A stretch of DNA of 34,091 nucleotides from Bacteriovoracaceae bacterium. GTDB lineage: Bacteria > Bdellovibrionota > UBA1018. Below are positions 155 to 25,248 of this stretch, one piece after another. Position numbers and translations under genes: made by a program. Under the pieces are notes generated by a model. The model made no database searches. It was not told the DNA's origin and worked only from the letters and a program-made list of their open reading frames with translations. Where the stretch lies: contig CANMSW010000001.1 in NCBI GenBank assembly GCA_947500275.1, forward strand, positions 1-34,091, in the 5' to 3' direction. Each line of letters opens with the position of its first letter. The stretch's first letter is position 1.

Positions 155-1435
155 TTAGCGGTCTAGTTCGCCAGCGATGATGTTCATACTGCCCAAGAGT
201 CCGACCATATCCGCGATCTTCAAGCCGTCAGAAACTGGCGTGAGGGTCTGAAAATGGTAAAACGAGGGCCCACGAATTCTCATGCGGTGGGCGGCCGGAC
301 CGCCCTTGCTCACGATATAGAATCCGAGTTCGCCATTGGGTGCTTCAAAAGTGGTGTAGGCCTCGCCCGGAGGCACCTCGAAGCCGGTCATGAAAAACTT
401 AAAGTGATGGATCAGACCTTCCATCGTATTGTGAACGACGTCCTTTTCAGGAATGCGAACTCGCTTGTCATCTGCCCAGATCGGACCTTTTTTAATTCGA
501 TCACAGCACTGACTGATAATATTTAAGGACTGCCGAATCTCTTCCATTCGAACCAAATAGCGGTCGAACACGTCGCCATTTTGGGCAATCGGTACATCAA
601 ACTCCATGTCCTTATAAAACATCGATGGCTGGTCGCGCCGCAGGTCGTAGTTCAGGCCCGCCGCCCTTACTGCCGGACCCGTGACACTGTAGGCTTGGCA
701 AAGTTTTGCGTCCATAATGCCGACGCCAATCGTACGCTGACACCAAATTTTATTGCCCGTGAGCAAGGCGTCCATCTCGTCGATGACGACCCGGGTGCGC
801 TTTACCCAGTCTTTAACTTGTTTTTCCCAACCCTCAGGCGCGTCGGCCATCAGGCCACCAATACGAGTGTAAGAGGTGGTCAGTCGTGCACCGCAAAGCT
901 TTTCAATCAGCGTGTAGGCTTCTTCCCGCTGGTGGAATCCATAAAGGAAAAAGGAAAACGCACCCAGGTCGACCGCGTTGATACCGACACAAATGAGATG
1001 GTCGATGACTCGTGCAAGTTCGCAACAAATCATCCGAATCCAGACAGCGCGATCGGGAACCTGAACGCCCATGAGCCGCTCGACCGACATGGCATAGGTC
1101 ACATTGTTCACGAGCGCCGAACAGTAGTTCAACCGATCCGTGTAGACCACGAACTGGTGGTAAGTTCGGTTTTCACCCAGCTTTTCTTTGGCACGATGGG
1201 TGTAACCAAATTCACAGTACGACTTTTCAATCGTTTCACCGTTAATCTTAGCCACCATTCGAAGCGCACCGTGCATCGCTGGGTGCGTTGGACCAATATT
1301 CACGATCACTCGCGAATCACCCCAGAGATCGTCCGGGTCATGGTCCACTGAGTAGTGTCCACCTTGCGGTAAACCCAGGTCGGGGAGTCGTTCGTTTTTC
1401 ATGATGTTCTCGGAGGTCTTCTGGTCGATCGACAT
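155..1435 (-). CDS. nuoD: NADH-quinone oxidoreductase subunit D (49 kDa), canonical copy
   Basis: 426 aa. Carries GPTHPAMHGALRM (canonical HPxxHG loop), TDRLNYCS (quinone-site Tyr present) and the C-terminal NIIAGELDR. Order is nuoC-nuoD-nuoE. Confidence 0.95.
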   Translation of the reverse strand: MSIDQKTSENIMKNERLPDLGLPQGGHYSVDHDPDDLWGDSRVIVNIGPTHPAMHGALRMVAKINGETIEKSYCEFGYTHRAKEKLGENRTYHQFVVYTDRLNYCSALVNNVTYAMSVERLMGVQVPDRAVWIRMICCELARVIDHLICVGINAVDLGAFSFFLYGFHQREEAYTLIEKLCGARLTTSYTRIGGLMADAPEGWEKQVKDWVKRTRVVIDEMDALLTGNKIWCQRTIGVGIMDAKLCQAYSVTGPAVRAAGLNYDLRRDQPSMFYKDMEFDVPIAQNGDVFDRYLVRMEEIRQSLNIISQCCDRIKKGPIWADDKRVRIPEKDVVHNTMEGLIHHFKFFMTGFEVPPGEAYTTFEAPNGELGFYIVSKGGPAAHRMRIRGPSFYHFQTLTPVSDGLKIADMVGLLGSMNIIAGELDR

Positions 1436-1487
1436 TTACGCTAGCTCCGTGGTTCCAAAATGCGCTCTTAAAGGTTGAAAATCCTGT

Positions 1488-2057
1488 TTAATAATTGAGG
1501 AGCGATGGATCGATCGCCTCAGGGGTCGGGAAAATTTGATATCCGCGAAGAGGATAGTCCTTACGCAATGGATGTCCTTCCCAGCGAACGTCCATAAGAA
1601 TGCGACGAAGATCCGGGTGGCCCTCAAAGCGAACCCCGAACATGTCCCAAACTTCACGCTCAGCCCAGTTCGCGGCGGGCCAAAGACTGATCGCCGTGGG
1701 AACTGCATTTTCCTCATCCGTCCTTACCTTCACCCGAACACGTGACATCGATTTGCGTGAGAGCAGGTTGTAAACAACGTGAAATCGTGGTGCCGACTCC
1801 TCGTCGGTTGCGGTCAAATCAGCGAGAAAGCCGTATTCAAACCCTGCATCGTTTTTCATGAAACCAAGCACATCGATAATTCGGGCTGCTTGGACGAAAA
1901 TGATCGGGACATCAGTGTTCGCTTCTTTTGGAAACAAAACCTCTTCAATGGCGTCGCCAAACTTTTCCTTTAAGGTTTGAACTTGCTTCTTCCAGAGCTC
2001 ACCAAACTTTTCGAGTTGATCGCCATAGATGGTAGGAACGGGTGTGTTAATATCCAT
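1488..2057 (-). CDS. nuoC: NADH-quinone oxidoreductase subunit C (30 kDa), canonical copy
   Basis: 189 aa. Contains AEREVWDMFGVRFEGHPDLRRIL...HPLRKDYP, the typical 30 kDa subunit signature. Lies between nuoB and nuoD. Confidence 0.93.
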   Translation of the reverse strand: MDINTPVPTIYGDQLEKFGELWKKQVQTLKEKFGDAIEEVLFPKEANTDVPIIFVQAARIIDVLGFMKNDAGFEYGFLADLTATDEESAPRFHVVYNLLSRKSMSRVRVKVRTDEENAVPTAISLWPAANWAEREVWDMFGVRFEGHPDLRRILMDVRWEGHPLRKDYPLRGYQIFPTPEAIDPSLLNY

Positions 2058-2123
2058 TTTTTCCGACTCTCTTGTTCTGGTCTTTCCGGGTAATTGATCT
2101 CTTCGCGAAAAAAAGACTCTGTA

Positions 2124-2639
2124 CTAGGTAATCGACTTCAGAGTTCCTGCGCGGGATTGCCGCTCGCGGCGTTGGGCTACAGTTTCACCTTTTTGAATCT
2201 GCTCCTGAAGACGGATCAAAGAGTGCAAAACGCCCTCAGGCGCTGGAGGACAGCCGGGAACGTAGACATCAACAGGGATGACCGTATCAATCCCTTGAGT
2301 GACGCTATAAACATTGAAGATTCCGCCAGACGAGGCGCACGCACCAAATGACATGACCCACTTTGGTTCACTCATCTGATCATAAACCGTCTTCAAGACC
2401 GGAGCCATCTTGGCGTTAATGATCCCCGCGACAATCAGTAAGTCCGCTTGCCGGGGCGAAAAGCGAATGGCCTCGGCACCAAATCGAGCCATGTCGTAGT
2501 CAGAGCAAAGTGTGGCCATCATCTCGATTCCACAGCAGCTCGTCCCAAACGGAAGAGGAAACAAAGAGTGCTTACGTGCCCAATTTACGACCGCGTCTAC
2601 ACGAGTGGTGAAATATGCTGCTGACCCGTCTTTGCTCAT
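2124..2639 (-). CDS. nuoB: NADH-quinone oxidoreductase subunit B (20 kDa, N2 cluster), canonical copy
   Basis: 171 aa. Contains GTSCCGIEMM, SPRQADLLIVAG, GACASSGG and PGCPPAPE, so all four N2 Cys positions are present. Confidence 0.95.
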   Translation of the reverse strand: MSKDGSAAYFTTRVDAVVNWARKHSLFPLPFGTSCCGIEMMATLCSDYDMARFGAEAIRFSPRQADLLIVAGIINAKMAPVLKTVYDQMSEPKWVMSFGACASSGGIFNVYSVTQGIDTVIPVDVYVPGCPPAPEGVLHSLIRLQEQIQKGETVAQRRERQSRAGTLKSIT

Positions 2640-2685
2640 GTTCTTGCTCCTGCGTGTTGAATCTGAAGTTGGGACTCAGTGACGA

Positions 2686-3045
2686 TCACTCCCACTCCAG
2701 CGCGCCCTTCCGAAGAATGTACCAATAGCCAACAAGAAGGATCGCCGTGAAGACGACCATCTCGACCAAAATGAAAGAGTTTATAGTGAGGAACTTTCTG
2801 TAAACAACGGCCCAGGGGTAAAAGAAGAGAACCTCAACATCGAAAAGAAGAAAAAGGATCGCGACCAAATAGAACCGCACCGAGAATCTCTGGCGCGCGT
2901 CTCCGAGCGGAGGAACCCCGCACTCGAACGGCTGATCCTTCAGCGCATGCTTAATTCGCGGCCCAAGAAGGTGTGTAATCACAAGAACCGCGGCAGCGAC
3001 TAACACGCCCACTGCCATTAGCATCAAGACTGGAATATAGCTCAT
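2686..3045 (-). CDS. nuoA: NADH-quinone oxidoreductase subunit A, canonical copy
   Basis: 119 aa, three TM segments. Contains PFECG and RFSVRFYLVAILFLLFDVEVLFFYPWA; the conserved Asp/Glu of the FDVE motif are present. AGGATGG RBS upstream. Confidence 0.93.
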   Translation of the reverse strand: MSYIPVLMLMAVGVLVAAAVLVITHLLGPRIKHALKDQPFECGVPPLGDARQRFSVRFYLVAILFLLFDVEVLFFYPWAVVYRKFLTINSFILVEMVVFTAILLVGYWYILRKGALEWE

Positions 3046-3237
3046 AGACTAACCATCCTCTGATGTTCGCGCCTGAAGACAACCTCAAGCTCCCTAAAAA
3101 CACACCGAGAGTGACTGAATGAAGACCCACACTCCTCAGTCGCAACGCGAACTTAAGAGCGCAAGCCTCAATCACAACCTCTCGATTAGAGCTTTCGCTC
3201 TCAAGAGTACACGAGGAGCTTAAAACATTTGTAGGCT

Positions 3238-3267
3238 TTTATAGCGATGCGGCGTGTCCTAGGCCAA
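3238..3267 (-). promoter_or_regulatory. Candidate sigma70-type promoter for the canonical nuoA-B-C-D-E... operon
   Basis: The reverse strand reads TTGGCC-18 nt-TATAAA, just downstream of the preceding terminator and about 190 nt upstream of the nuoA start. This is a by-eye consensus match only. Confidence 0.25.
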
Positions 3268-3270
3268 GTG

Positions 3271-3300
3271 AAAAACGGGGGCCTCCTCTGTCGGGCCCCC
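3271..3300 (-). terminator. Rho-independent terminator ending the 11-gene nuo-like operon
   Basis: Reverse-strand RNA is GGGGGCC-(10 nt loop)-GGCCCCC followed by GUUUUU. It starts 10 nt after the nuoN-like stop at 3310. Confidence 0.7.
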
Positions 3301-3309
3301 ATAAAAGTG

Positions 3310-4833
3310 TCAGGGAAACATCAGTCCCTGGGTTGCGCGCTCAAGGAGGCGGAAAAGTGCGTCCGAAAAAATGGCCGCCGTGATCAGAGGAAAAAGAAAG
3401 AGCCCCATGAAGAGCCGCTGCCCGCGGACCCGTGCGGGGGTGGGTAGCCAAACTCGCTCATCGACCAACGGTGATCCCGGCGCAACAGTCTGGGTTGCAA
3501 ACCCACCCATCAAACTGAAGATCAATCTTCCAGCGGCTAGGGTGTTCAGCGCTATCGCAGCGACCCCGGCCGCGGCGAGCCCGTACCACTCGTGATCCAC
3601 TGCCGATCCCAAAAGGGCAAACTTGCCGACAAAGCCTGGCATGGGGGGAAGTCCGATGAGTGCGCAGAGACAAAGCACGAGGGCGATGCTTTCCGGTACG
3701 TTCGCTTGAAACGCTCCCCGCAGCCGATTGAGCGCATCCGAGCCCAGACGATCTACAAAAATCTGGAGAACGAATAGTGCCCCCATGAGGCCAACAAGGC
3801 TTACAAAAAATGAGTAGAGAACCGCAGAGAGGCCCTCCTGATCGAGCACAAGAATTCCTAAAAGACTAAACCCCGCTTCGGTGAGCGCAAGAGTCGCGAT
3901 CATTCGGCGTCCTGAGGTCTGCCCCAGTGCGAGCACGGGGCCAATCAAGAGACTAAACGCCACCAGCACGGCCATCGGTCCTGTCCAGTCGAACTGTCCA
4001 AGGATGGTCCAATGCCGAGCTGGGCCAGCCGAATCCATTTCAACGGTACCGAAAACCTGGGTTAATACGCGTATCCATGCGACCAATCCGCCTGCACGCG
4101 TCGCTACGGAAATGAAAGATGAAGAGGGAGTAGGAGGCCCCTCAAGCGCATCGGCAAACCAAGTATGAAATGGAAATGCGGCTACATAGAAGGACAAGCC
4201 CATCAGCAAAAAAAGCCAGACCATCGCACCCGCCTGAATACTCAAGGGCGCAGCCACCAGGGCTGCGTGAATCTGGTCCAGGCGCGTCGAATGGGTTGCG
4301 CTAAAAAGAAGAGCGATTCCAAATAGCAAGAAAGTTCCAGACACTACCGATAGGACCAGGTACTTCACGGCTGCCTCTGTTGACCGCACTGATCCCGTTC
4401 CGAAGGCCGCCAAGAAGCCACAAGAAACACTCAGAAGCTGCAAGCAGGCCCAAATCAGAAAGAGGTCTGAAGCCGATGAAAGGACTGTCAGCGCCAGTGC
4501 CCCGCCCAAGACAAGAATCTGGAATTCAGGGCGCCGATGTTGAGCAATTTCGTCAGAAAGCTGGGCGGAACCGACCGCGTAGAGTGCCAGCACTATAGCC
4601 AAGACCTTAAAAAAGACTGCGACACCATCTACTTTTACGCTGCCCTGAAACCCCGCAGATATGCCGAAGCGGGCGATAAGAAACACCTGAAGAAGTGCTC
4701 CCACTAGGCCAAAAACAATCGTCAACCAACCGACCCTGATTCGCTCGCCCCGATAGCCGAGCTCCCCCAAGACGGCGCCTACCATCGTGATCAAAATGAA
4801 TACTTCCGGTAATAAAATCAGAAAATCATTCAT
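3310..4833 (-). CDS. nuoN: NuoN-like antiporter-type subunit of the divergent 11-gene complex I-like operon
   Basis: 507 aa polytopic protein. Contains STEAAVKYLVLSVVSGTFLLFG, AFPFHTWFADALEGPPTPSS and GLPPMPGFVGKFALL (ND2/NuoN pattern). It is the last gene of the operon. Confidence 0.85.
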   Translation of the reverse strand: MNDFLILLPEVFILITMVGAVLGELGYRGERIRVGWLTIVFGLVGALLQVFLIARFGISAGFQGSVKVDGVAVFFKVLAIVLALYAVGSAQLSDEIAQHRRPEFQILVLGGALALTVLSSASDLFLIWACLQLLSVSCGFLAAFGTGSVRSTEAAVKYLVLSVVSGTFLLFGIALLFSATHSTRLDQIHAALVAAPLSIQAGAMVWLFLLMGLSFYVAAFPFHTWFADALEGPPTPSSSFISVATRAGGLVAWIRVLTQVFGTVEMDSAGPARHWTILGQFDWTGPMAVLVAFSLLIGPVLALGQTSGRRMIATLALTEAGFSLLGILVLDQEGLSAVLYSFFVSLVGLMGALFVLQIFVDRLGSDALNRLRGAFQANVPESIALVLCLCALIGLPPMPGFVGKFALLGSAVDHEWYGLAAAGVAAIALNTLAAGRLIFSLMGGFATQTVAPGSPLVDERVWLPTPARVRGQRLFMGLFLFPLITAAIFSDALFRLLERATQGLMFP

Positions 4834-4842
4834 AGCTCAGCC

Positions 4843-6429
4843 TCAATTAAACGAAGAAAGCATCGCCAAAACGGTCGGTCTGACTAAATCGAGTAAGGGC
4901 TTCGGATAAACACCAAAGCCGACGAGTGCGATGACAACCGGAATCAAATAAAGCTTCTCCCGGGGACGAAGGTCTTCAAATGCGGCCGTGAGGGCTGTCG
5001 TTTGTCCCAAGAATACACGCCGGTACATGTTGAGGATCGTATAGGTCCCTAGAAGAAGCGCACCCCCAGCCGCAATCACGACGAATGGATGGAAAGAATA
5101 GCCACCAATCACGAGAAGCGCATGAGAGACAAAACCACCCACGCCCGGAACCCCTAAGATTGAGGCCGAAGCGATCGCTGCCACCAATGCTGCCCCCGGT
5201 GCTCCTAGGGCAACTCCACCTAATGTAGAATCTTTCGACTCCGTATCGGCCGTAAAGAGCTCACTTCGGGTTCTCTCTGATATTACTCCAACCAAAAGAC
5301 CAAGGGCGGCCAGCGCCAAGCCCACCACGAGTTGCTGATAAACGGCGCCCACGAAGCCTGCCTGGCTAAGCGAGCCCACGCCCATCAACAAAAGGCCCAG
5401 TTCCCCGAGCGCAACAAACGCGAGCAGCGATCGAAGGCCTCTTTGTGCAACTGCGCACACACCACCGACCAACAAATTAACAACCCCGACCACAACGACT
5501 GCTGAGGCCACCTTGCCCAAGGTTTCTGGAAATAACTGAGTCGAGAGCCGCATAAAAATAGAAGGAGCAACGGCGAGCACAGTAACCACCGATGCGACCA
5601 AAACAGTGGCCGGCGCCTCTACGGCAACCTTAGTGAACCATCCATGAAAGGGCCATATCGGAGCGCGTAATATAAGTCCGCTGGTCATCAGAAAAAACGC
5701 TAAATCAGAAGTGCTCACATTGTAGCCAAGAATCTCAAACCCGGCACCACGGATCCCCCCCTGAGCGAGCAAACGAAGCGAGAACGTGTTCGGTTCAGCT
5801 GAATAATAGACAACGAGAAGCGCGCCGAAAAAAAGCGCGTTTCCAAGGGCAGCCGTAACGATACTCCTAAAGGCGGCTGACTCCCGATCTGCGCCACCCC
5901 AAATCCCGATAAGAAAATAGAAGGGCAGAGCGGACATCGACCAAAAAAAGAAAAGAAGAAACAGATCTTGGGCGCAAACGGCACCAAGCAAGGATGCCTG
6001 TAAAATGAGGAGGAGTCCGTGAATTCCGCGCCTTCCAGCGCCTCGGGTCCATTCGGCAGCGATCAAGAGCGGAAAAACCAGAGAAATCAGAATCACGACA
6101 GGGGCGCTCAGACCATCTAGCCCAAGTTCATAACTAATCGCATAGGAACCAATCCAGGGTAAAGACTCGACAATCTGGGGTTCGGCAACCTTAGGATGCA
6201 TCGACGCCACAAGGACTACACCGCAGATTGCGCTCGCTAAACTTGCACTCAGGGCGGCCCAACTCGCTGACCCCTCTCCTAATCGACTTGGCTTAGCAGA
6301 AACATCAGCGCTGGGGCTGTTCGTCTCTCCATCTCGACTCGAGGCGGGAACTTGGCCTCCAATCACGGTCTGAAGAATAGCGCCCAAAACGGGCGTTGCG
6401 AGCATAAATGTGATGAGATGCTGAACCAA
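4843..6429 (-). CDS. nuoM: NuoM-like antiporter-type subunit (divergent)
   Basis: 528 aa. Contains LGLDGLSAPVVIL, FFFWSMSALPFYFLIGIWGG and WPFHGWFTKVAVEAPAT (ND4/NuoM pattern). TTG start preceded by GGAGGTG. Confidence 0.85.
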   Translation of the reverse strand: MVQHLITFMLATPVLGAILQTVIGGQVPASSRDGETNSPSADVSAKPSRLGEGSASWAALSASLASAICGVVLVASMHPKVAEPQIVESLPWIGSYAISYELGLDGLSAPVVILISLVFPLLIAAEWTRGAGRRGIHGLLLILQASLLGAVCAQDLFLLFFFWSMSALPFYFLIGIWGGADRESAAFRSIVTAALGNALFFGALLVVYYSAEPNTFSLRLLAQGGIRGAGFEILGYNVSTSDLAFFLMTSGLILRAPIWPFHGWFTKVAVEAPATVLVASVVTVLAVAPSIFMRLSTQLFPETLGKVASAVVVVGVVNLLVGGVCAVAQRGLRSLLAFVALGELGLLLMGVGSLSQAGFVGAVYQQLVVGLALAALGLLVGVISERTRSELFTADTESKDSTLGGVALGAPGAALVAAIASASILGVPGVGGFVSHALLVIGGYSFHPFVVIAAGGALLLGTYTILNMYRRVFLGQTTALTAAFEDLRPREKLYLIPVVIALVGFGVYPKPLLDLVRPTVLAMLSSFN

Positions 6430-6481
6430 GGACCACCTCCACGACTAAAGGCACTCAGGCCTCCAGTTCAGGGCATAAGAG

Positions 6482-8425
6482 CTATTGTTGACTTACCAAG
6501 AAATGTATCAGCAGAGATATTCCTGCGCCAATTGCGAACGTCACGTACCATTGAAGATTCCCAGTGTGAGCAGACTGTACTGCCCCCGTAGCAGCGGTCG
6601 ATAGCGCGTAAGCAACTCGTGCGATCAGATTACTCAACGCACGATCTACCTTCCCAAAAGCGCGCCCAGCAGACTGCACACCGCGGTTTAAAACATAAGG
6701 CGCCCAAGTGTTTGAAAACTTTTCATCAATCCAGGTTTGCAGGTGCCGTCCTACAAACCTAAATGCGTCGGCGAGACCCGCGAATGCTCTCTCCGTTCCG
6801 TACCCGCCCGAGACAAAGGCCGAGAGCCGTGGCGCGTAGGCCACAAACTTGCGAAACGGGCCAATACCTGATGCCCCATTCCACCAAGCGATCAAGATGG
6901 AGGTCAACAAAAGCGCGAAGTGTACACCTATGACGAGAGTGTTGACGCTGTCGCCGCGACCGTTAGGGGAAATCCGCTCGAGCACCGAGCCCAGCACTCG
7001 GTCAGAGAAAATACTTGCGTCAAGACCGGTGAGTGTTCCGTTCCAAAAAACCCCAAACCCAACGAAAATTACTAAAACAGGAATTGATAACCAGCGCCCC
7101 TGAATAAAACTTTTTTCGCTCTCATGCTTAAAGGCGGTTCCCAGTTGCCAGGCTACCCGAGCGCCACATGCGGAAACGAGAAAGCTGCACAAAAGAACGA
7201 CCGCCGCGCGAGCGGGCGACTGTTGCATAGATTCAGCATAAAGGGCCACAAACCCTCCTGCGGAAGCAAAAAGAAGTCCGCCGGCCGAAGAAAACGCCCC
7301 AAGCAGAGCCACCGAAAGTAACCAATTCGAACCATTTTTAGTGCTTTTCGATGACTTTTCGATCGCGCAGTCCACCTTTTTTGCAGCGCCGTCGGCCAAG
7401 AGGGCCCACCCTAAACTTACGGTCACCGCAGTCAAACAGATTGGAACTGCTACATGGGCGCCGACAAAACCCAAAGATGCAAAGGATACCATTCCAATGG
7501 CTGAGAGCCAGAGAGACGCCGCGTTCATCCAGTTGTTTTGAAAGAAACTTGAAGTGGCCGCTAGAATCGCTGCCAAAGAGCCAATCCAACCCAAGGCTGT
7601 CTCTAGTCCTGCAGCGCGGATGAGCGACTCGTTCCTGATGAGCGCTCCCAGTGAAACCCAAAGCGGTGCAGCCTGTGCTATATAAATCCGCGTTAGCGGT
7701 CCCGAGGGGGCATGCCGAGTGAGTCGACCCAAGAGCGGGAACGGTTGAGCAAAAACGAAGATTCCCGCGAGCAACAGAATAGGACCTAAACCTTTGGCTG
7801 CGACGGCCGGAGTCAGGCTTTGAATGTGCGTGATTGCGCCTGCGCCCAGTACTGCAAGCAGAATCGCGCTAATTCTCTCAATACCAAATGACATCATGAA
7901 TTCAGCGCCTTCAGGGTCCCGCCAGTGACCACCAAGTGCTATGACTCCACCGAGTGCAGCAAAGACCATCCCTAAAAAGGATGCCCACGGCGTGATTCCC
8001 GACCATGCTAGGACCGAACCCATGAGTGAAAAGCCTATTGCTGATGCAAACCTTCCTACCCCAGTCCACCTCTGCCTTGCCCAAACGTAGACCTGTAGTA
8101 GGACTGCAAGCGTAGCCGCTGCAATTCCCGACGACACCCCAAGGACGTCGACACTCATTCCAAACCGAATCGCAAGACCCTGTCTTCGAGGTAAGATCCA
8201 TCCCGATATCCAGTCAAAAGAGGATTGATCCTCGAGACTGAGATCATAGCCCAACCAACCCAAAAGGACGAGCAGCCCTACGCTGGCAATTAGGACCGGC
8301 ACACTCGCTAGTGTCGGGATTCTTCTTCCGAAGAAAAACGCGAGCAGGCTTGCGAAACCCAAAAAGAGTATTCCGAGAGCGAGCGGTTCGGGAGAATGCA
8401 GGAGTGGACTAAGATCACTTTTCAT
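6482..8425 (-). CDS. nuoL: NuoL-like antiporter-type subunit (highly divergent) with C-terminal lateral-helix region
   Basis: 647 aa. Contains RWTGVGRFASAIGF (compare WEGVGLCSYLLIGF) and AQPFPLLGRL (compare AQxPLHxWL). A long amphipathic C-terminal stretch ends in SAHTGNLQWYVTFAIGAG, which resembles the NuoL HL helix and last TM. It lies between nuoK-like and nuoM-like. Confidence 0.75.
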   Translation of the reverse strand: MKSDLSPLLHSPEPLALGILFLGFASLLAFFFGRRIPTLASVPVLIASVGLLVLLGWLGYDLSLEDQSSFDWISGWILPRRQGLAIRFGMSVDVLGVSSGIAAATLAVLLQVYVWARQRWTGVGRFASAIGFSLMGSVLAWSGITPWASFLGMVFAALGGVIALGGHWRDPEGAEFMMSFGIERISAILLAVLGAGAITHIQSLTPAVAAKGLGPILLLAGIFVFAQPFPLLGRLTRHAPSGPLTRIYIAQAAPLWVSLGALIRNESLIRAAGLETALGWIGSLAAILAATSSFFQNNWMNAASLWLSAIGMVSFASLGFVGAHVAVPICLTAVTVSLGWALLADGAAKKVDCAIEKSSKSTKNGSNWLLSVALLGAFSSAGGLLFASAGGFVALYAESMQQSPARAAVVLLCSFLVSACGARVAWQLGTAFKHESEKSFIQGRWLSIPVLVIFVGFGVFWNGTLTGLDASIFSDRVLGSVLERISPNGRGDSVNTLVIGVHFALLLTSILIAWWNGASGIGPFRKFVAYAPRLSAFVSGGYGTERAFAGLADAFRFVGRHLQTWIDEKFSNTWAPYVLNRGVQSAGRAFGKVDRALSNLIARVAYALSTAATGAVQSAHTGNLQWYVTFAIGAGISLLIHFLVSQQ

Positions 8426-8432
8426 AGGCGCT

Positions 8433-8732
8433 CTAGTTTTTCAGGTTTTCAATTTCACTTAAATCTACATTGCCGCGCAGATAAAAGAGCCGCGTGGAAA
8501 GCCCAAGTCCGATTCCAAATTGCGCTAAACCGGCTAATAAAATCACTACTGCGTAGGCCTCTCCTGATGAGACAGGGAAGCTGTCAGAGCCAATACCGGA
8601 AACCAAAAAGGCTAATGCGGCAGACAGACTGAGAAGCTGTATTCCTACCAGAAGCCTCAGTACGCCTGCGCGAAGCAGAACGCAAAGGAGTCCCGAGACA
8701 GCGAGCATCGCTACAGGCATATAATAAATCAT
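8433..8732 (-). CDS. nuoK: NuoK-like subunit (divergent)
   Basis: 99 aa, three TM segments. It aligns along its whole length with E. coli NuoK (LLVGIQLLSLSAALAFLVSG / VVILLAGLAQFGIGLGL). ATGA overlap with the upstream nuoJ-like gene. Confidence 0.85.
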   Translation of the reverse strand: MIYYMPVAMLAVSGLLCVLLRAGVLRLLVGIQLLSLSAALAFLVSGIGSDSFPVSSGEAYAVVILLAGLAQFGIGLGLSTRLFYLRGNVDLSEIENLKN

Positions 8733-9301
8733 GATTCCGACACCCCACCCTGAGCGGCGGCCCGTTTAAGAACCCTGGGTCTCGATATTGCTCCAACGCC
8801 AACTATAGTGAGAAAGGTGCCTACCCCCACCATGAGAAGCGCAAGCATTGGTCCGTTTGCTAGCGCCTCACCTAAGCGTGCTACGGCAGACGCACCCGAC
8901 TTACCGAGGGTGCCCTCCGCTCCATGTTTCTGTAAGCCCAGGCCGTTCACACCTAGCAAGAAAGTCCAACCCAGGGCGACGCTCACCAAGAGGCCACCCA
9001 CCGGGAGAAACGCTGCCAACTTCCCCCTCGGATGGGCAGCCCGTGCCCGTCGCGAGGACGCGCCCTCCGATGGGTCCAGGATTTCCCCAAAGGTCGAACC
9101 ATAGGCCAAAAAAGCGACAGTACTTGAAGATCCCAACACCCAAACGAGGAGTGTTATAAACTCAGCTCCGAAGTGGAGAGCAATACATCCGAAGAGGAGG
9201 TTCACACACCACAGCGCAAGCACGGCACTCGTAAAACTTCTCCCAAGCGCTGCGAACATGCTTGCGACTCCCAGTAAAGCCGAGAGCACCCAAATCATCA
9301 T
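8729..9301 (-). CDS. nuoJ: NuoJ-like subunit (divergent)
   Basis: 190 aa membrane protein. Contains HFGAEFITLLVWVLG (compare GAxFLAxxQxxVYxGA) and a C-terminal GPMLALLMVGVG. Position between nuoI-like and nuoK-like, with ATGA overlaps on both sides. Confidence 0.7.
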   Translation of the reverse strand: MMIWVLSALLGVASMFAALGRSFTSAVLALWCVNLLFGCIALHFGAEFITLLVWVLGSSSTVAFLAYGSTFGEILDPSEGASSRRARAAHPRGKLAAFLPVGGLLVSVALGWTFLLGVNGLGLQKHGAEGTLGKSGASAVARLGEALANGPMLALLMVGVGTFLTIVGVGAISRPRVLKRAAAQGGVSES

Positions 9302-9948
9302 AATTCTCCCTTTATTTTTTGGCTCTCGGTAGAAGACCCCTGTTCACTTCTATCTGAAAGTTCAGAAAGAGAGAAAACCGGAGCACCCTGAGTATCGCGC
9401 TGTACCTTCTCCCACCGACTCTTCTGCTCGGCTGTGATTCTGCCGCGACCAAAACTGGCCGACATATCGGCGAGATCATAGACAGCCCGCTCATAGGCTT
9501 TAGTGTGGACGAGTGAAGTCGGAATACAAGACTCCACACAGAGTCCGCAGAAGGTGCAACTTGAGAAATCAATATCGAAAACTGATACCCAAGCCTTCTG
9601 GGAGTCCGGGACTTGAACTGTTTCCACCGTGATACATTTCACGGGGCAAACTTTCTCGCAGTCTCTGCACCCCGTGCACCGCTCAATATCATTAAAGAGT
9701 AAACCACGAACCCTTGCCGGAAGATCGTTCTCGGTCCGTGATGAAATGGGATCTGGATATTGCTCAGTCACTTCTTTTCGGAGGTCCGCAGCATTCCCCC
9801 CGCGCAAGTAAGGGAGCGACGCGCGAAGTGCGTTCGAAAGGCTCGCAAGAGCGTCGCGCAAAGATTTGAATGAAGCGATCAAATCTTGTGTCAACCCACT
9901 GGAAAAAGACGGAGCAACAAGGTCTCTCTCTTCACCGCTCATACTCAT
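9298..9948 (-). CDS. nuoI: NuoI-like 2x[4Fe-4S] ferredoxin subunit (divergent, with N- and C-terminal extensions)
   Basis: Contains CTGCRDCEKVCP and CTFCGLCVESCIP. I chose the start at MSMSGEE (ATG at 9948) because it forms an ATGA overlap with the nuoH-like stop and has GGAGGA upstream. The ORF track extends to 10023. Confidence 0.85.
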   Translation of the reverse strand: MSMSGEERDLVAPSFSSGLTQDLIASFKSLRDALASLSNALRASLPYLRGGNAADLRKEVTEQYPDPISSRTENDLPARVRGLLFNDIERCTGCRDCEKVCPVKCITVETVQVPDSQKAWVSVFDIDFSSCTFCGLCVESCIPTSLVHTKAYERAVYDLADMSASFGRGRITAEQKSRWEKVQRDTQGAPVFSLSELSDRSEQGSSTESQKIKGEL

Positions 9949-10982
9949 GGAGAAATTCCTCCTGCCTTCAAAAGGGCGGAACCCATCAGACAAACGAGAG
10001 AGATCGGGCCGAGTGCGCGCCAAGAGAAATCAGCAACTTGATCAAACCGAATTCTCGGCATCACACGCCCAACTACGCCCAAAACCATCATGAGTGACAG
10101 CGTTTTAAGACCTACGAGGAAAACTTGAATCGCCTGATATGCAAAGGTATTTGCGGCGCCCTCACCTAGAACAGCCACTAAAACAGAGCTTAAGAACCCA
10201 GGAAGCGCCCAGCCACCCATGAATAGCCCTACCGTAAGAACACACCAAACAAGCACACCGTAAAACTTGATGATCACGGACAAAGAGGAGCGCCTCCCCG
10301 AGAACAGTGTGCCAAGTCCACCTCGAAGATCAGGGCCAGACGCCGTGCTATCAAAAGGGGGTAACGAGAGGATTACCATTCCTGATGCTAGAAAAATAAG
10401 AAATGAAACAAACAGAAATGGCTCCCTGAACATTAGCCAAGTACCCATGCTTGAGTCATGCGGGCTTAAAAGGTTCGACCACTGAAACCCTCCGGCGGAG
10501 AGTCCCACCGATATTAGCGAAATCATCGCTGGCAGAAAGCCTGATATCGCTTGAAATGCCGAGCGAAGCCCGGCAAGCCAACCTGTAAACTCGCGACTGT
10601 TCACACCCAGGAGGAGGCTACAAACAGAAACCATCAAGATGCACCAGAGTGGCAGGAGAATCGATAATCCTGTAATCGTCATGAGGAGATGCGGTGCAAT
10701 CGGTACTGTTACCATTGCCGCGTGGAGTGCGGCTAACTGCAGGGCCGGCCACAGGGCTAGCTGCGGGGTTTTGAGTTCCGGCGAAACCTTCTGAAGTAAT
10801 TTCAGCTGATCGGCAATCCCCTGAAACAAGCCGAGGGGTCCCACGCGATTCGGGCCAACTCGGGCCTGAAGATCGGCTCCAATTTTTCTCTCGAAGTATG
10901 AGTGCAGAAACCCAACCGGGAGCACAAAACCCAGTTGAAGAATCAAGAGCGACGAGAAGACTTTTGAAAGTGTTTCAATCAT
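9945..10982 (-). CDS. nuoH: NuoH-like subunit (divergent)
   Basis: Contains FERKIGADLQARVGPNRVGPLGLFQGIADQLKLL, the hallmark ND1/NuoH N-terminal motif. I chose the start at MIETLSK (ATG at 10982, GAGAGG RBS, 13 nt after the nuoD-like stop). The ORF track extends to 11057, inside nuoD2. Confidence 0.88.
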   Translation of the reverse strand: MIETLSKVFSSLLILQLGFVLPVGFLHSYFERKIGADLQARVGPNRVGPLGLFQGIADQLKLLQKVSPELKTPQLALWPALQLAALHAAMVTVPIAPHLLMTITGLSILLPLWCILMVSVCSLLLGVNSREFTGWLAGLRSAFQAISGFLPAMISLISVGLSAGGFQWSNLLSPHDSSMGTWLMFREPFLFVSFLIFLASGMVILSLPPFDSTASGPDLRGGLGTLFSGRRSSLSVIIKFYGVLVWCVLTVGLFMGGWALPGFLSSVLVAVLGEGAANTFAYQAIQVFLVGLKTLSLMMVLGVVGRVMPRIRFDQVADFSWRALGPISLVCLMGSALLKAGGISP

Positions 10983-10995: not shown

Positions 10996-12138
10996 TCATC
11001 GGTCGATTTCCGCCAAGTTGAGGTCAAGGCTCGCCAGGACCAATGGAATATCCTCAAGTTGGCAGCCAGGTATGATCTCGGGTAACAGATCCAGCGGCGC
11101 CCGAGACGGCACTCTAAAGTGGACTCGTGATGGCCGCTCGCCTCCGGCGGATAAGACGTGACAGGTCAGTAAGCCCCGGGAGCTTTCCACTCGGGAGAAC
11201 CCTTCTCCGATCGGAATCTTAAATTTCTCATCTGCCTTCAAGCCGAGGGCGCTTCCGGTCGGCATGATTTCTGAGCACTGGCGTATAATATCCATCGATT
11301 GAACAATCTCTCGAATGCGAATCATGTATCGCCCATGACAATCGCCTTCGCGCTCTTCTCCCATCACCACATCAAAATCTAACTTCGAATAGGCAGCATG
11401 GGGCGCCCATCGTCGCGTATCCATGGCAATCCCGCTTGCTCGGGCATTTGGCCCCGAAAGACCAACCCTCTTGGCCGCTTCAGGAGTGATGTTTGCGGTT
11501 GCTCGTGCTCGACCTAAGAATGCCTGATTGTAGCTAAAAAGGTCGTTGTACTCTTTAAACCGGTGGCGCATGACGGCGCAAACTTCAAGCACCCGCTCTA
11601 AAAAGCCGTCGGTCACATCGTGGACTACGCCACCCATCCGGAGGAAATTAAGAGAAAACCGTGCACCTGTGAGTAGCTCGAAAAGATCGACAAACTTTTC
11701 CCGATCTCGCTGGACGTAGTGGAAAAGAGTTTCTGCTCCTACAGTGCGCGCTAAGCGCGCTACAAAGCCCAGATGCGATACCACCCGTGAAAGCTCAGCT
11801 GCTAGCGTTCTTACAAACAGGGCTCTTTCGGAAACCTCGATGCCCGCGAGATCTTCGACTGCCTGACAATAGGCGAGCTCCCCAAAAATGGCCCCCTCTG
11901 GGTCAAGGCGGTCAGATATCAGCACTCCGGCTGTCCAGCCCTCAGATTCAAATACTTTTTCAAGCCCTCGATGGGCAAATCCTGTTTCGGTTCTTGCGGA
12001 AACGACCAGCTCTCCATCGAGTACAAGCTTAAGCTGCATCAAGCCTGGCAAGCCTGGGTGATACGGGCCCATCACCCAGTTGGTCGAATCCGTCTGGAGA
12101 ACTTCCGTTTGAAAAGGCGCAGGGGCCATCGTCATCAT
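10996..12138 (-). CDS. nuoD: NuoD-like 49 kDa subunit, divergent paralogue
   Basis: 380 aa. Contains MGPYHPGLPGLMQLKLVLDGE, TGFAHRGLEKVFE, LTGARFSLNFLRMGGV and the C-terminal LDLNLAEIDR. Confidence 0.88.
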   Translation of the reverse strand: MMTMAPAPFQTEVLQTDSTNWVMGPYHPGLPGLMQLKLVLDGELVVSARTETGFAHRGLEKVFESEGWTAGVLISDRLDPEGAIFGELAYCQAVEDLAGIEVSERALFVRTLAAELSRVVSHLGFVARLARTVGAETLFHYVQRDREKFVDLFELLTGARFSLNFLRMGGVVHDVTDGFLERVLEVCAVMRHRFKEYNDLFSYNQAFLGRARATANITPEAAKRVGLSGPNARASGIAMDTRRWAPHAAYSKLDFDVVMGEEREGDCHGRYMIRIREIVQSMDIIRQCSEIMPTGSALGLKADEKFKIPIGEGFSRVESSRGLLTCHVLSAGGERPSRVHFRVPSRAPLDLLPEIIPGCQLEDIPLVLASLDLNLAEIDR

Positions 12139-12148: not shown

Positions 12149-12676
12149 TCACTGCTGCTCGGCCTTTTCGGTCGAAGAACCCAGTCGCCTCATGGGGAAG
12201 CCAAAATGATCGTGATCATGATCATGATCGAGTGAAAAGTCAGATCCAAAGTCTGGCCGATTTAAAAACTGGATCCCGAATAAAACTTCTATTTCCAGCT
12301 CGGAGCCGATCGCCGCAGGCCAGAACTGAGCGAGGGAAGGGAGCTCCGTGAGCTCGCCTGTGCCAGTGACCGGCAATACGACTCTCAACCAAAGACTTCG
12401 GCCAAACTGGCTCGTATCAGTCCACTTTGCGGTGACAAGAAGCCCACCTTGAAACTCCATCGCAAAAAGGTCTTCAAAAAATGAAAGACCTAGCTCATTC
12501 GATGACCGACGAAGCTGACTCAGCGCTTCTGAAAATGACTCTCTGCTCACAAAAATCTGAATCGCCCGGTTAGACCCGGTCGCTTCAAATTGGCTAACAT
12601 CTTGGATCGCTAAACCCTTAAAGACTTCGCGTACCCGCGCCGACCAAACTTCATGGGAAGATTTAGGATTCGCCAC
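12149..12676 (-). CDS. nuoC: NuoC-like 30 kDa subunit, divergent paralogue with (HD)4 tract
   Basis: 175 aa, lying between nuoB-like and nuoD-like. There is weak similarity to the NuoC core (compare GSELEIEVLFGIQFLNRPD with AEREVWDMFGVRFEGHPD). The call rests mainly on position. Confidence 0.65.
   Translation of the reverse strand: MANPKSSHEVWSARVREVFKGLAIQDVSQFEATGSNRAIQIFVSRESFSEALSQLRRSSNELGLSFFEDLFAMEFQGGLLVTAKWTDTSQFGRSLWLRVVLPVTGTGELTELPSLAQFWPAAIGSELEIEVLFGIQFLNRPDFGSDFSLDHDHDHDHFGFPMRRLGSSTEKAEQQ
12206..12229 (-). repeat. Hexanucleotide (GATCAT/GATCAC)x4 tract encoding DHDHDHDH in NuoC2; contains four GATC sites
   Basis: The plus strand reads atgatcgtgatcatgatcatgatc. The reverse-strand codons are GAT CAT GAT CAT GAT CAC GAT CAT. 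Confidence 0.9.
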
Positions 12677-13145
12677 GAATCTTCTCCTGAAGGGTGATCA
12701 AGCCGTTCATAATAGCCTCGGGTCTGGGTGGGCAACCAGGCACATGGACATCCACCGGAATGATCCTTCCAACCCCTGAAAGACCTGTGTAGCTCCGATC
12801 CTCTGAAAATAAGCCCCCACAGCTGGCACAACTTCCAAGCGCCATTACGTACTTCGGCGCCAACATTTTTTCGTAAATCTGAAGCAGATGGGGCGCTGAC
12901 TTACGCGTCACTACGCCGCTCACAAGGAGAAGGTCCGCCTGAGAGGGTTCAAGCTGAGGAACACACCCAAACCGCTCGAGATCGTAGCGGCTCCCCAACG
13001 TCTCCATGACCTCATCGGCACAACAACCGGACTGAACGGCGTAATACCAAAGGGACCCAGAGCGAGCCCATTTCATGGCGCTCTCGAGTTTCGACAGAAA
13101 AAAACCACTCTGATTCTCTGATGCTGAAGGTCTGCCTTTATTCAT
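12663..13145 (-). CDS. nuoB: NuoB-like 20 kDa subunit, divergent paralogue (N2 cysteines retained)
   Basis: 160 aa. Contains SGCCADEVM, GSCASCGG and PGCPPRPEAI. ATGA overlap with the nuoA-like gene. Confidence 0.9.
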   Translation of the reverse strand: MNKGRPSASENQSGFFLSKLESAMKWARSGSLWYYAVQSGCCADEVMETLGSRYDLERFGCVPQLEPSQADLLLVSGVVTRKSAPHLLQIYEKMLAPKYVMALGSCASCGGLFSEDRSYTGLSGVGRIIPVDVHVPGCPPRPEAIMNGLITLQEKIRGES

Positions 13146-13651
13146 AAAGACTCCTCCCGGTGATTTTCCTTCTCGGCGCGATAGGTCCGCAACAGGAATA
13201 GGTCGCCCTTTCCTGATCCATGTAGCAATCCAAGTAAGGCGAGCAATGCGATGGACAGGAGCAGAATCAGCGTTCGCGAATTCGTGGCAGCGCCCTCTCC
13301 GACGATCCCTACGCGATAGGCGAGTGGAATTAAAACCATGACCATTCCTAGGAGCAGGTGGGCAAACAGAGTTGTGACGAAAAACCGAGAGTTAAACCTC
13401 CTGCCGAGCAAGGGACTCGTCGTTTCGTCATCTCTCAATACTGGCTGATGCCCTTGGCTTGGCTCGACATGACTGGAGCGCGCCCGATTGCTGCCGCGCC
13501 GGGGCAAGAGCATGGTCCGTGAAATGATATAGAGAACAGCAGGTACAACCAAAGACACTGCTGCAGCAACAAAGAAGGGGAGGTAAGCCTGCCAGCTTGA
13601 CGATATCCCTTCAGTCTGAAATGCCGCTAATATTCCCTGCGCTTCGCTCAT
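13142..13651 (-). CDS. nuoA: NuoA-like membrane subunit, divergent and extended paralogue
   Basis: 169 aa with about three TM segments. It is the first gene of the operon and is translationally coupled to nuoB2. RRFNSRFFVTTLFAHLL aligns with canonical RFSVRFYLVAILFLLF. It carries a long Arg/Ser/Pro-rich loop. Confidence 0.55.
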   Translation of the reverse strand: MSEAQGILAAFQTEGISSSWQAYLPFFVAAAVSLVVPAVLYIISRTMLLPRRGSNRARSSHVEPSQGHQPVLRDDETTSPLLGRRFNSRFFVTTLFAHLLLGMVMVLIPLAYRVGIVGEGAATNSRTLILLLSIALLALLGLLHGSGKGDLFLLRTYRAEKENHREESL

Positions 13652-16800: not shown

Positions 16801-17486
16801 CCCCGATCACCGACGACGCGCGTAAACGTCTCGATGTCATTCAGCGATTTATTGAGCTCGGAAGTGGCTTCAGCATTGCTTCTCACGATCTAGAGATGAG
16901 GGGCGGAGGCGACATTCTCGGTCCCGAACAGTCGGGACATATTGCGGCAGTCGGATACGAGCTTTATATGGAGCTCCTTGACGATGAAATTCGTAAGCTT
17001 CGCACCGAGGGAACCTCCCTTAGCAGTGAAGTTTCAAGTGCTCGTGACCCGGAAATAAAGGCTCCTTACCCGGCCTTTCTGCCCGAGGGGTATGTCCCAG
17101 AAGTACACCAAAGACTTGCGCTCTATCGCAGACTTTCTTCTGCAAGAACAGAAGGAGAGCTCCGAGACCTTGAGTCGGAGATGGAAGACCGCTTTGGACC
17201 TATAGGCGCAGAGGCGAAAAACCTTCTTTGGCTCATTCGCGTAAAACTACTTTTAAAAGCCCACGCCGTCGATATTTTGACAGTCGGCGAAGGCCGCGTA
17301 GTTTTGACAGCTGGTCCGGGAAGCCACTTCGATACCGACCGCGTCGTCGCGTTGATTTCCTCGGGATCTGGTGAATATCAGCTTACTCCTGATTCGAGAC
17401 TGATTGCCCGCGCTAATACCACGACCATCCATGAACTCCATTTTGATTTAGAGCGCCTTCTGGAAAAAGTGGCGCGGCGGAATTGA
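13848..17486 (+). CDS. mfd: Transcription-repair coupling factor Mfd
   Basis: 1212 aa. Contains an RNAP-interaction region (YEAGDKLYVPVWRLNVIQKY), FPFDETPDQ, Walker A GDVGYGKTEV, DEEQRFG, LSATPIPRTL and RGRVGRG. Confidence 0.96.
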   Translation: MSATATVQNPFAQFMAACHASLESSLSGRAGAGISGATGIARALVLARLLRSANQKTESFRPAQWVCICPNDETLQDLHKDLIELISAFFEQKDAPRVLAFPDWDANPYTTASPSIRVRHARLAALAALLTPGPPLVLLTTPESFIRGTIPLQEFKSRAIHLKVGQEASDRDELLASLFACGYLQSDPVEDPGTFAFRGEILDIFPPGRLRPFRVEFFDNEVERIREFDPQTQRTEGGKSESLRGLSEIILYPAREVILDENTVPALRENLKAHADDLEIPRSVRDPIMAGISPALNPDHADAWVPFCWNKTESLFNHLQGNTHFTVVEPEACIESLQATRASYESACSRAPLQGLILPPLEKLYAFEPDQMALLSKRANLSLRGASTGQRSDSSFDLAGETPLVVANRLKAEGSSSSKNLVRHLLELGHKVYLFSRAGTSIDRLEKYLRDGEAPFRHVSNPFDGLLEGADSGSGVAEIFKGKITSGFVWSAAKVAILRDSDATGASEVSRKTRAARGRKKTPEEGGLSGAKNWSEIQALADLSTNDAVVHADHGVGRYRGLTRLALNGAPSDFLQIEYEAGDKLYVPVWRLNVIQKYAGTGESAPLDRLGSQNFLRQKDRARESAQALAVDLVRLYAERTLRPGIAFAPPDDSFERFELEFPFDETPDQMKAIEAVLDDLQSGRPMDRLVCGDVGYGKTEVAIRAAFHAVANGKQVGVLVPTTLLATQHESTFKSRLSASAIHVESITRFKSRTDQKRVLEETAAGKIDVLIGTHRVLSKDVRFKDLGLVIIDEEQRFGVEHKELLKTLRVNTHVLTLSATPIPRTLHLALSGLRDISLINTPPVDRLPIKTWVSRRNDEMIATAIRNELARGGQVFFLHNRVQTIKETTAQLARTIPEARFGMAHGQMSERDLESAMQSFLKKEKDVLVCTAIIESGLDIPSANTILVDRADHFGLAQLYQIRGRVGRGQVRAYAYLMTPEEAPITDDARKRLDVIQRFIELGSGFSIASHDLEMRGGGDILGPEQSGHIAAVGYELYMELLDDEIRKLRTEGTSLSSEVSSARDPEIKAPYPAFLPEGYVPEVHQRLALYRRLSSARTEGELRDLESEMEDRFGPIGAEAKNLLWLIRVKLLLKAHAVDILTVGEGRVVLTAGPGSHFDTDRVVALISSGSGEYQLTPDSRLIARANTTTIHELHFDLERLLEKVARRN

Positions 17487-18422: not shown

Positions 18423-18436
18423 CGCGCCACGGCAAC

Positions 18437-25217: not shown

Positions 25218-25248
25218 GGATTCTTCCTTTCCTTTCTTCTTTCACTAC

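Follow-up and report, generated by a model that had tools for sequence, protein, structure and literature searches.

An eleven-gene complex I-like operon of uncultured Bdellovibrionota with intact iron-sulfur ligands and replaced quinone-site and proton-path residues

The stretch of DNA analysed here (the window) comprises 34,091 nucleotides (nt), positions 1 to 34,091 of contig CANMSW010000001.1 from a Bacteriovoracaceae bacterium (GTDB lineage Bdellovibrionota; UBA1018; assembly GCA_947500275.1). On its minus strand, from 13651 down to 3310, the open reading frame (ORF) and gene-caller tables of the window show 11 tightly packed frames in the order nuoA-B-C-D-H-I-J-K-L-M-N, which resemble the genes of respiratory complex I and are called Nuo2 below. 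A first-pass annotation of the window had reported that the residues considered essential for proton translocation are replaced in several of the membrane subunits of this operon, and we followed up that claim in the window and its relatives. All 11 frames were free of interruption, as that annotation had stated, and neighbouring genes overlapped by 4 nt at A2/B2, H2/I2 and J2/K2. The genes of the NADH-oxidising N-module (nuoE, nuoF and nuoG) were absent from Nuo2, including between nuoD2 and nuoH2, in the window and in every relative checked. The genes are as follows, with lengths in amino acids (aa).

nuoA2, 13142..13651, minus strand: 169 aa; hhalign profile-profile probability of 97.7% against canonical NuoA
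nuoB2, 12663..13145, minus strand: 160 aa; PF01058, 94 bits
nuoC2, 12149..12676, minus strand: 175 aa, very divergent; PF00329, 33 bits; hhalign probability of 99.7%
nuoD2, 10996..12138, minus strand: 380 aa; aligned to T. thermophilus Nqo4
nuoH2, 9945..10982, minus strand: 345 aa by gene-caller start (longest ORF to 11057); PF00146, 157 bits
nuoI2, 9298..9948, minus strand: 216 aa by gene-caller start (longest ORF to 10023); two complete 4Fe-4S motifs
nuoJ2, 8729..9301, minus strand: 190 aa; hhalign probability of 98.7%
nuoK2, 8433..8732, minus strand: 99 aa; both membrane Glu residues replaced by Gln
nuoL2, 6482..8425, minus strand: 647 aa; predicted to have the complete fold of NuoL, including its lateral helix and C-terminal anchor
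nuoM2, 4843..6429, minus strand: 528 aa; family of 121 sequences
nuoN2, 3310..4833, minus strand: 507 aa; K395 retained

Pfam matches in the window were found for B2, C2 (weak, 33 bits), D2, H2, I2, K2, M2 and N2, and nuoA2, nuoJ2 and nuoL2 were without any Pfam or NCBIfam match. The identities of A2, J2, C2 and K2 were backed by hhalign profile-profile comparisons (probabilities of 97.7-99.7%). In NuoA2, the FECG loop between transmembrane helices (TM) 1 and 2, which lines the quinone cavity, was swapped for a variable low-complexity insert of 20-70 residues, and one gene caller annotated just a 65-aa fragment of this gene. NuoC2 kept 3 of 20 polar columns that are invariant in the canonical subunit. 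The copy in the window also carries an (Asp-His)4 repeat (about 12180-12215, minus strand; ...SLDHDHDHDHFGFP...) at a place where the compared orthologues read LPEDW or LPKGW; this may be either an insert that binds metal or mere repeat slippage.

The homology of NuoL2 became clear once both sides of the comparison were profiled or an 80-sequence profile was used. The NuoL2 profile aligned with that of 14 canonical NuoL sequences end to end over 557 columns (hhalign probability of 98.6%, E = 8e-16), and the 80-sequence profile matched cyanobacterial NdhF in the PDB with the C-terminal anchor included (E = 4e-16). When NuoL2 was compared with E. coli NuoL alone, hhalign gave P = 0.009, and searches of the PDB with the single sequence or a 6-sequence profile returned no match even at E <= 1 to 10. 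The AlphaFold2 (AF2) model built on the 80-sequence alignment had a mean predicted local distance difference test score (pLDDT) of 90.3 and a predicted template modelling score of 0.87, whereas the model built without an alignment had a pLDDT of 45. The former contained a discontinuous TM7, a 77-residue lateral helix (residues 544-620) and a final TM helix (624-646). Its top 49 Foldseek matches were all NuoL, ND5 or NdhF, with a template modelling score of about 0.7 to E. coli NuoL, and the model thus supports NuoL2 as a full NuoL with lateral helix and anchor TM. The way of searching mattered for its relatives as well. Word-indexed searches with the single sequence or the 6-sequence profile found just one 99%-identical fragment, hydrophobic words being uninformative, and an exhaustive HMMER search returned 155 clusters at 50% identity, most of which align co-linearly with the query at lengths of 610-680 residues; no ordinary NuoL was among them.

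Residues of the membrane arm were checked in MAFFT alignments against the E. coli K-12 nuo operon, for which the key numbering was verified, and independently in HMMER pairwise alignments to solved structures. The residue table covered eight Nuo2 operons, 13 N-module-less operons of the type termed NUO11, seven canonical operons of the same Bdellovibrionota genomes and E. coli. Most of the replacements named in the first-pass annotation were reproduced. In NuoK2, the motifs VGIQLL and GLAQFGIGL indeed correspond to E36 to Gln and E72 to Gln, changes found in 8/8 and 6/8 Nuo2 operons, respectively. In NuoN2, ACLQLLS stands for E133 to Gln, GLSFYVAAFPFH for K217 to Tyr, and GFVGKF retains K395, as was also seen against NdhB of 6hum; a further loss, K247 to Arg, had been overlooked. 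Among the Nuo2 operons, Gln occupies E133 in 6/8 and K217 in 7/8, and Arg occupies K247 in 8/8. For NuoM2, alignment with P. denitrificans Nqo13 agreed with the earlier reading of FFWSMS as E144 to Ser, of LILRAPIWPFHGW as K234 to Arg and of GFVSHALL as E407 to His, and added K265 to Ala, H322 to Glu and H348 to Val. The NuoM changes run through the family of 121 members: E144 is Ala, Gly, Ser or Thr in 121/121, K234 is Arg in 121/121, K265 is Pro in 114/121, H322 is Glu in 87/121 or Gln in 28/121, and E407 is His in 87/121.

Two of the earlier assignments needed revision. The motif RWTGVGRFAS of NuoL2 had been taken as the site of the TM5 Glu (E144) but aligns to about positions 110-119 of E. 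coli NuoL, where its Arg matches the conserved R115; the position sought in TM5 is that of V154, within SFLGMVFAALG. Since V154 is also non-Glu, the conclusion that NuoL2 has no Glu in TM5 stands. The C-terminal Glu of NuoJ2 (E. coli E142) had been reported as lost, and it is indeed Leu in the window, but 7/7 orthologues keep the Glu, so that the change is specific to the window's lineage and not a property of Nuo2; Y59 of NuoJ2 is also lost, with Gly in its place in the window. At K229 of NuoL2, the non-Lys residue in IFVFAQPFPLL was correctly identified (Phe), and Gln occupies this position in 51/80 family members. NuoL2 is also without D178, H254, H334, H338, K342, K399 and D400; at nine NuoL channel positions, each position carries an ionisable residue in 0-4 of the 80 family members, and NuoL2 of the window has none at any canonical channel position.

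Similar losses were found at the interface with the redox site. NuoH2 has lost E157, R209, E216, E218 and E228, with E241 changed to Arg, E220 to Asp and D213 kept, and NuoA2 has lost D79, E81 and E102. The E-channel carboxylates (NuoH E157, NuoA D79/E81 and NuoK E36/E72) are therefore all replaced, and among the TM5 Glu, TM7 Lys, TM8 Lys and TM12 Lys/Glu of NuoL, NuoM and NuoN, NuoN K395 is the sole survivor. In all comparators the tested path positions were invariant, except NuoN K247 (Asn in two outgroups) and NuoA D79/E102 (variable in several). In Nuo2, the listed invariant positions were all replaced except NuoN K395, NuoH D213 and NuoJ E142 (7/8). The Glu/Lys relay of NuoN, NuoM and NuoL was replaced in two ways, either by residues that are polar but non-titratable or carry a fixed charge (Gln, Arg, and Glu in place of the TM10 His) or by small or hydrophobic ones.

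The loss was heavier on the path than elsewhere. Two of 27 literature-defined proton-path positions were kept, compared with 40 of 88 other conserved ionisable positions in the same subunits (Fisher p = 2e-4). Conserved ionisable columns of the membrane arm were kept at about 4/33 in L, 10/28 in M and 1/4 in K. The idea that charges were removed from this arm surgically was only partly upheld: non-ionisable positions were lost equally often, yet path positions were lost more often than other ionisable ones. The alignments suggest that the membrane arm is remodelled wholesale rather than edited surgically. We also asked whether the missing Glu and Lys residues might simply be shifted by a turn, the outcome that had been named as fatal to the first-pass claim. 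Within +/-5 alignment columns around the lost TM-axis positions no ionisable residues were present, with two exceptions: a Glu/Arg pair at the surface, upstream of NuoL D178, and, at +2 of NuoL K399, variable basic residues. The surroundings of NuoH E157 and NuoA D79/E81 were likewise free of ionisable residues; a shift by a turn therefore does not explain the losses. The remodelled TM5-6 loop of NuoH has conserved Asp, His and Arg near the lost Glu residues.

These replacements could also be read as an ion translocator with different chemistry, using another coupling ion or anion, or a proton path made of Arg, His, Glu, Gln and water. They are conserved and polar rather than random (Gln in K2; Gln/Gln/Arg/Lys in N2; Arg/His/Glu/His in M2), M2 is as conserved as D2 and I2 (58-60% identity), and the entire arm is retained, including the lateral helix. 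However, neutralisation of the E-channel between the redox site and the arm is complete, the NuoH loop has lost its carboxylates, the channel positions of L2 are essentially without ionisable residues in 80 sequences while L2 evolves fastest, and TM5 and TM8 of M2 carry Ala, Gly or Pro. As a matter of general chemistry, moreover, neither Arg nor Gln can relay protons at physiological pH. We consider such a translocator quite unlikely.

The peripheral arm showed a very different pattern. All 12 Cys ligands of the iron-sulfur (Fe-S) clusters were kept, with 4/4 in NuoB2 of 8/8 operons and 8/8 in NuoI2 of 6/6 operons of the first set, so the ligands of the chain N6a, N6b (NuoI2) and N2 (NuoB2) are intact. 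The N2 ligands of NuoB2, including the tandem CC, are C63, C64, C129 and C158. Conserved ionisable columns were kept at 36/40 in NuoD and 10/12 in NuoB. An extra Cys stands 3 residues past the third N2 ligand of NuoB2 (GSCASCGG or GACANCGG) in 5/6 operons inspected, and a 3-residue insert comes after it; canonical NuoB has Ser at this position.

Against this conserved background the quinone ligands of NuoD2 were replaced in 8/8 operons, as was confirmed by direct alignment to T. thermophilus Nqo4. Pro stands in place of both the second His of the HPxxHG loop (Nqo4 H38) and the Tyr (Nqo4 Y87, E. coli NuoCD Y273), and Ala, Ser or Thr in place of the partner Asp (Nqo4 D139). The loss of the quinone ligands in a well-conserved peripheral arm thus appears surgical, unlike the remodelling of the membrane arm. 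The N-terminal loop of NuoD2 reads GPYHxxLPG and its C-terminus LASLDLxLAExDR, without Cys at the NiFe ligand positions. New invariant residues have appeared in the former active-site loops, namely the Tyr of GP(Y)H, the Glu of LDPE and the Glu of FGE, which points to a changed substrate or binding mode.

Homologues of NuoM2 form at least 121 clusters with 48-65% identity, and the named ones are from metagenome-assembled genomes (MAGs) of Bdellovibrionota, Bdellovibrionia or Oligoflexia. Nuo2 loci were recovered on contigs around seven NuoM2 homologues, and a genome scan gave at least two more operons; the contig of the window is present in two public assemblies. Synteny and intactness of the operon held for all of these relatives, seven of them represented by DNA and two by gene tables. 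The scan used patterns common to ordinary NuoM and also supplied the NUO11-type outgroups, and its yield is not a measure of taxonomic range. The Nuo2 carriers FG-1 and JAMPXJ01 belong to class UBA1018, alias 'Bdellonasia' (PMC13200544). In every recovered relative, mfd is followed by the 11-gene Nuo2 and then by a complete canonical operon (nuoA-L...) on the same strand, in which nuoA-D are followed by nuoE, F, G, H, I, J, K and L. The corresponding features of the window are given below.

mfd, 13848..17486, plus strand: divergent to Nuo2; upstream boundary and the same neighbour in all relatives
terminator-like hairpin, 3271..3300, minus strand: GGGGGCC-N10-GGCCCCC followed by G + TTTTT, 10 nt past the nuoN2 stop
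start of the canonical nuo operon, 155..3045, minus strand: nuoA 2686-3045, nuoB 2124-2639, nuoC 1488-2057 and nuoD 155-1435; Pfam matches of 93-349 bits

The hairpin was read directly from the sequence, the automated scan having missed it because its loop exceeds 8 nt. In the canonical nuoA-D of the window every canonical residue is present. The gap between nuoN2 and canonical nuoA, which lie on the same strand, is 264 nt in the window (3046-3309), 195-259 nt in its two closest relatives and 33-76 nt in more distant ones. As the gap varies by lineage, co-transcription of both operons may differ between lineages. The conserved adjacency suggests that Nuo2 works alongside complex I.

The divergence among Nuo2 operons was then examined for selection. 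Classical dN/dS could not be computed, dS being saturated in all pairs, and the proportions of nonsynonymous (pN) and synonymous (pS) differences were used instead. Between operons, pS was 0.72-0.9 (saturated) and pN 0.13-0.42, lowest in B2 and highest in L2, which gives a pN/pS of about 0.2-0.5; in canonical genes of the same genome pairs pN was 0.07-0.22. Saturated pS together with low pN indicates that Nuo2 is under purifying selection, as the first-pass annotation had expected. Mean orthologue identity was 31% for L2, 39% for C2 and J2, 46-47% for A2, K2 and N2, 51% for H2 and 58-68% for M2, D2, I2 and B2, against 64-82% for canonical subunits. Compared with complex I this selection is weaker, and most so towards the distal end of the arm. 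No internal stops were found in six translated Nuo2 operons, and all 11 frames are also present in two further ones (L009 and L010), so that the stops or frameshifts in close relatives that would have marked pseudogenisation did not appear.

A decaying duplicate with pseudogenisation under way might be suspected from the lost functional residues and from a nonsynonymous divergence 1.5-2.5 times that of the canonical operon of the same genomes. Yet the 11 frames are intact in eight operons despite saturated synonymous sites, the replacement residues are conserved at the pN/pS given above, and most of the 155 L2 and >120 M2 clusters are full length. Nuo2 is also no recent duplicate, as shown by the tree described below. 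Decay is therefore effectively refuted, and the intact syntenic operon, a pN well below pS and the conserved replacements support the earlier proposal of a functional shift over random decay.

Selection could also maintain a catalytically silent scaffold, that is, a membrane organiser or an assembly partner of complex I or other respiratory complexes in which the Fe-S clusters serve folding only. The loss of the catalytic ligands and of all pump residues would fit such a role, as would the relaxed constraint on the membrane arm and the adjacency to canonical nuo, strictly conserved in all relatives. However, the retention of 12 Fe-S Cys and of 36/40 ionisable NuoD positions across saturated divergence exceeds the conservation usual for folding alone, and the new invariant residues lie exactly in the former active-site loops, suggesting a pocket in use. 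An operon of 11 genes and about 10 kb would also be a costly scaffold. This explanation seems unlikely to us.

The nearest relatives of each subunit outside Nuo2, as found by phmmer, were NUO11-type operons (Elusimicrobia, Binatia, Calditrichota, Ignavibacteria, Acidobacteriota and Marinimicrobia). In a neighbour-joining (NJ) tree of concatenated B+D+H+I (1046 columns), Nuo2 was monophyletic in 100/100 bootstrap replicates and grouped with the NUO11 clade in 99/100, whereas a grouping with the Bdellovibrionota canonical operon appeared in 0/100. This tree is distance-based and Nuo2 sits on a long stem branch, which leaves its placement moderately secure. Nuo2 and the NUO11 clade further share a short NuoD, without a segment of about 24 residues, and a long-tailed NuoI. 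We conclude with moderate security, from the tree and these shared features, that Nuo2 descends from the N-module-less 11-subunit lineage and not from the neighbouring canonical operon. Recent tandem duplication of the latter was ruled out by the NJ tree and the NuoD indel. In one MAG without Nuo2 ('bacterium isolate STL-UBA1', L043:2382-21262, not named as Bdellovibrionota) a NUO11 operon with all canonical residues intact lies directly upstream of a NUO14 operon; the tandem layout may thus predate the silencing, and this locus may resemble the ancestral state.

This ancestry bears on the idea that Nuo2 borrows NuoEFG of the adjacent operon and acts as a non-pumping NADH-oxidising isozyme, a valve at high proton-motive force. 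In most relatives the two clusters are 33-76 nt apart, and a single nuoEFG set lies downstream. On the other side, Nuo2 belongs to a lineage without the N-module, NuoC2 is extremely diverged with its 3/20 invariant polar columns, and in the window the canonical operon is set off by a terminator-like hairpin and a gap of 264 nt. With the quinone ligands gone, NADH:quinone activity at the classical site is also unlikely. We regard this isozyme as very unlikely.

Comparison with known systems set Nuo2 apart from each of them. NUO11-type operons, with nuoABCDHIJKLMN and without nuoEFG, are known for example in Chlorobi, Ignavibacteria, Elusimicrobia and Desulfitobacterium hafniense (PMC11238625; PMC3144371). 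Nuo2 has the identical 11 genes in identical order, the Fe-S ligands, the short NuoD and the long-tailed NuoI. In contrast to Nuo2, the 13 NUO11 outgroups keep the residues of the Q-site, the E-channel and the antiporters, barring the variation at NuoN K247 and NuoA D79/E102. Enzymes of this type are assumed to share the energy-coupling engine of complex I. With the canonical 14-subunit complex I (E. coli, T. thermophilus, P. denitrificans) Nuo2 shares the core subunits, the lateral helix of NuoL and the tandem-Cys N2 site, but it lacks the N-module, the Tyr/His quinone ligands, the E-channel carboxylates and the Lys/Glu relay, and belongs to a different clade.

Large subunits without NiFe Cys are also found in Ehr complexes and MBS, in concept the closest precedents for Nuo2. 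Ehr (energy-converting-hydrogenase-related) complexes reportedly have a large subunit without NiFe Cys and without quinone ligands; their clusters are said to be small, of about 6-7 genes, and hydrogenase-like. NuoD2 resembles them in having neither NiFe Cys nor, by these accounts, the quinone ligands. Unlike Ehr, Nuo2 has 11 genes in Nuo order and its NuoD2 scores best to NuoD/NdhH, a distinction drawn against descriptions of Ehr complexes. Ehr complexes are mentioned in bioRxiv 10.1101/765248. NuoD2 scored 225 bits to NdhH and Nqo4, 193 bits to MbsL (end to end) and 150 bits to MbhL; a hydrogenase or Ech-type identity was ruled out by the absent NiFe Cys and the best scores to NuoD and NdhH. 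MBS/Mbx (PDB 6u8y) is similar in that NuoD2 aligns end to end with MbsL and in having a large subunit without a NiFe site, and catalysis in MBS was proposed to occur at the proximal Fe-S cluster and not on quinone (PMC8165549). Unlike Nuo2, archaeal MBS has a charged Mrp-type membrane module, conserves energy and differs in gene content and order. Earlier surveys had noted split or multiple nuo clusters in Bdellovibrio and relatives, without residue analysis (PMC4758237; PMC13147790), and a full-text literature search found no published description of a complex like Nuo2. To judge from these comparisons, Nuo2 would be a complex I-like enzyme of the 11-subunit lineage in which the catalytic and pumping residues are replaced clade-wide.

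Taken together, we consider it probable, though far from certain, that Nuo2 is a selectively maintained derivative of the NUO11 type which is assembled, redox-active and non-pumping and stands beside the canonical enzyme. Nuo2 would still assemble as an L-shaped particle, and electrons would enter at NuoI2 from the kind of donor that serves other 11-subunit enzymes, presumably ferredoxin or some redox protein that docks. They would then pass from NuoI2 to cluster N2 and on to an acceptor in the rebuilt pocket, with the new invariant Tyr (GP(Y)H), Glu (LDPE) and Glu (FGE). In complex I, the pumping wave starts when quinone is reduced and then protonated by Tyr and His, after which charge travels along carboxylates and Lys/Glu pairs. 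In Nuo2, a quinone-driven launch of this wave could hardly occur, and with the lateral chain of titratable groups gone, the chemistry would be uncoupled from proton translocation. The membrane arm would act as a locked structural anchor, with NuoL2, the most distal subunit, under the weakest constraint. On the former axis, the changes of Lys to Arg, His to Glu and Glu to Gln suggest fixed salt bridges or hydrogen bonds, which may stabilise buried cavities, rather than proton relays. One possibility for Nuo2 is an uncoupled electron-entry or overflow route.

Several points weigh against this reading of Nuo2 as a non-pumping redox enzyme. Of the conserved columns in the membrane subunits, 31% of the non-ionisable ones and 37% of the ionisable ones are kept (p = 0.27); the arm has diverged at all kinds of conserved position, and much of the loss could be general relaxation rather than targeted silencing. 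Polar or charged axis residues also remain (R255, E343, H262 and H436 in M2; R246 and Lys414, equal to E. coli K395, in N2), and a non-classical ion path may run through them. The position assignments of NuoL2 depend on alignments with 15-30% identity; the conclusion on NuoL2 is nevertheless robust owing to the family-wide lack of ionisable residues. The rebuilt NuoD pocket might still bind quinone. All Nuo2 operons come from MAGs, with no cultured carrier among them, and assembly and electron transfer of Nuo2 are what we infer from sequence. The three options offered by the first-pass annotation, a non-pumping complex, a different ion or substrate, and a scaffold role, lie beyond separation by sequence evidence alone.

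It is possible, and we propose it tentatively, that an uncultured clade of Bdellovibrionota has repurposed the complex I scaffold by keeping the Fe-S wire, rebuilding the pocket and silencing the pump electrostatically, giving an enzyme or mechanical device for neither quinone reduction nor pumping. If true, evolution would have produced and tested a 'pump-dead' complex I in nature, and Nuo2 would form a new functional class in the complex I superfamily. How quinone chemistry is coupled to pumping about 200 Å away is debated and has been studied mainly with single point mutants. In Nuo2, nearly the whole set of implicated residues (quinone ligands, NuoH loop, E-channel and three antiporter relays) is replaced, while the 11-subunit architecture and the Fe-S chain are under selection. 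A structure or assay of Nuo2 could tell how the scaffold functions once stripped of its charges, which of its features serve structure and which catalysis, and whether other chemistry takes place on a complex I fold. There is also a consequence for annotation. Automated pipelines label the Nuo2 genes as NADH-quinone oxidoreductase subunits, and metabolic reconstructions may thus count a second pumping complex I, which almost certainly does not exist in these Bdellovibrionota.

The remainder of the window is core chromosome, with recF, gyrB, gyrA, fabH, atpB, atpE, a uvrA-like gene, pgm, pdxA and two surA-like genes. The interval 24894-26718, some 11 kb away from the nuo clusters, holds the ATP synthase Fo genes atpB and atpE, with an atpI-like gene and an unassigned ORF of 135 aa before them. 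Bioenergetic genes are plentiful in this region, which is near recF and gyrB. In the canonical operons of relatives L004-L008 (about 17560-19000), NuoG is only 468-490 aa long and retains no more than a weak trace of the molybdopterin domain. In L004 (13442-15804 of a 1.68-Mb contig), canonical nuoB, nuoC, nuoD and nuoF appear split into several short called genes, which may reflect frameshifts or long-read assembly errors, and the upstream Nuo2 is intact.

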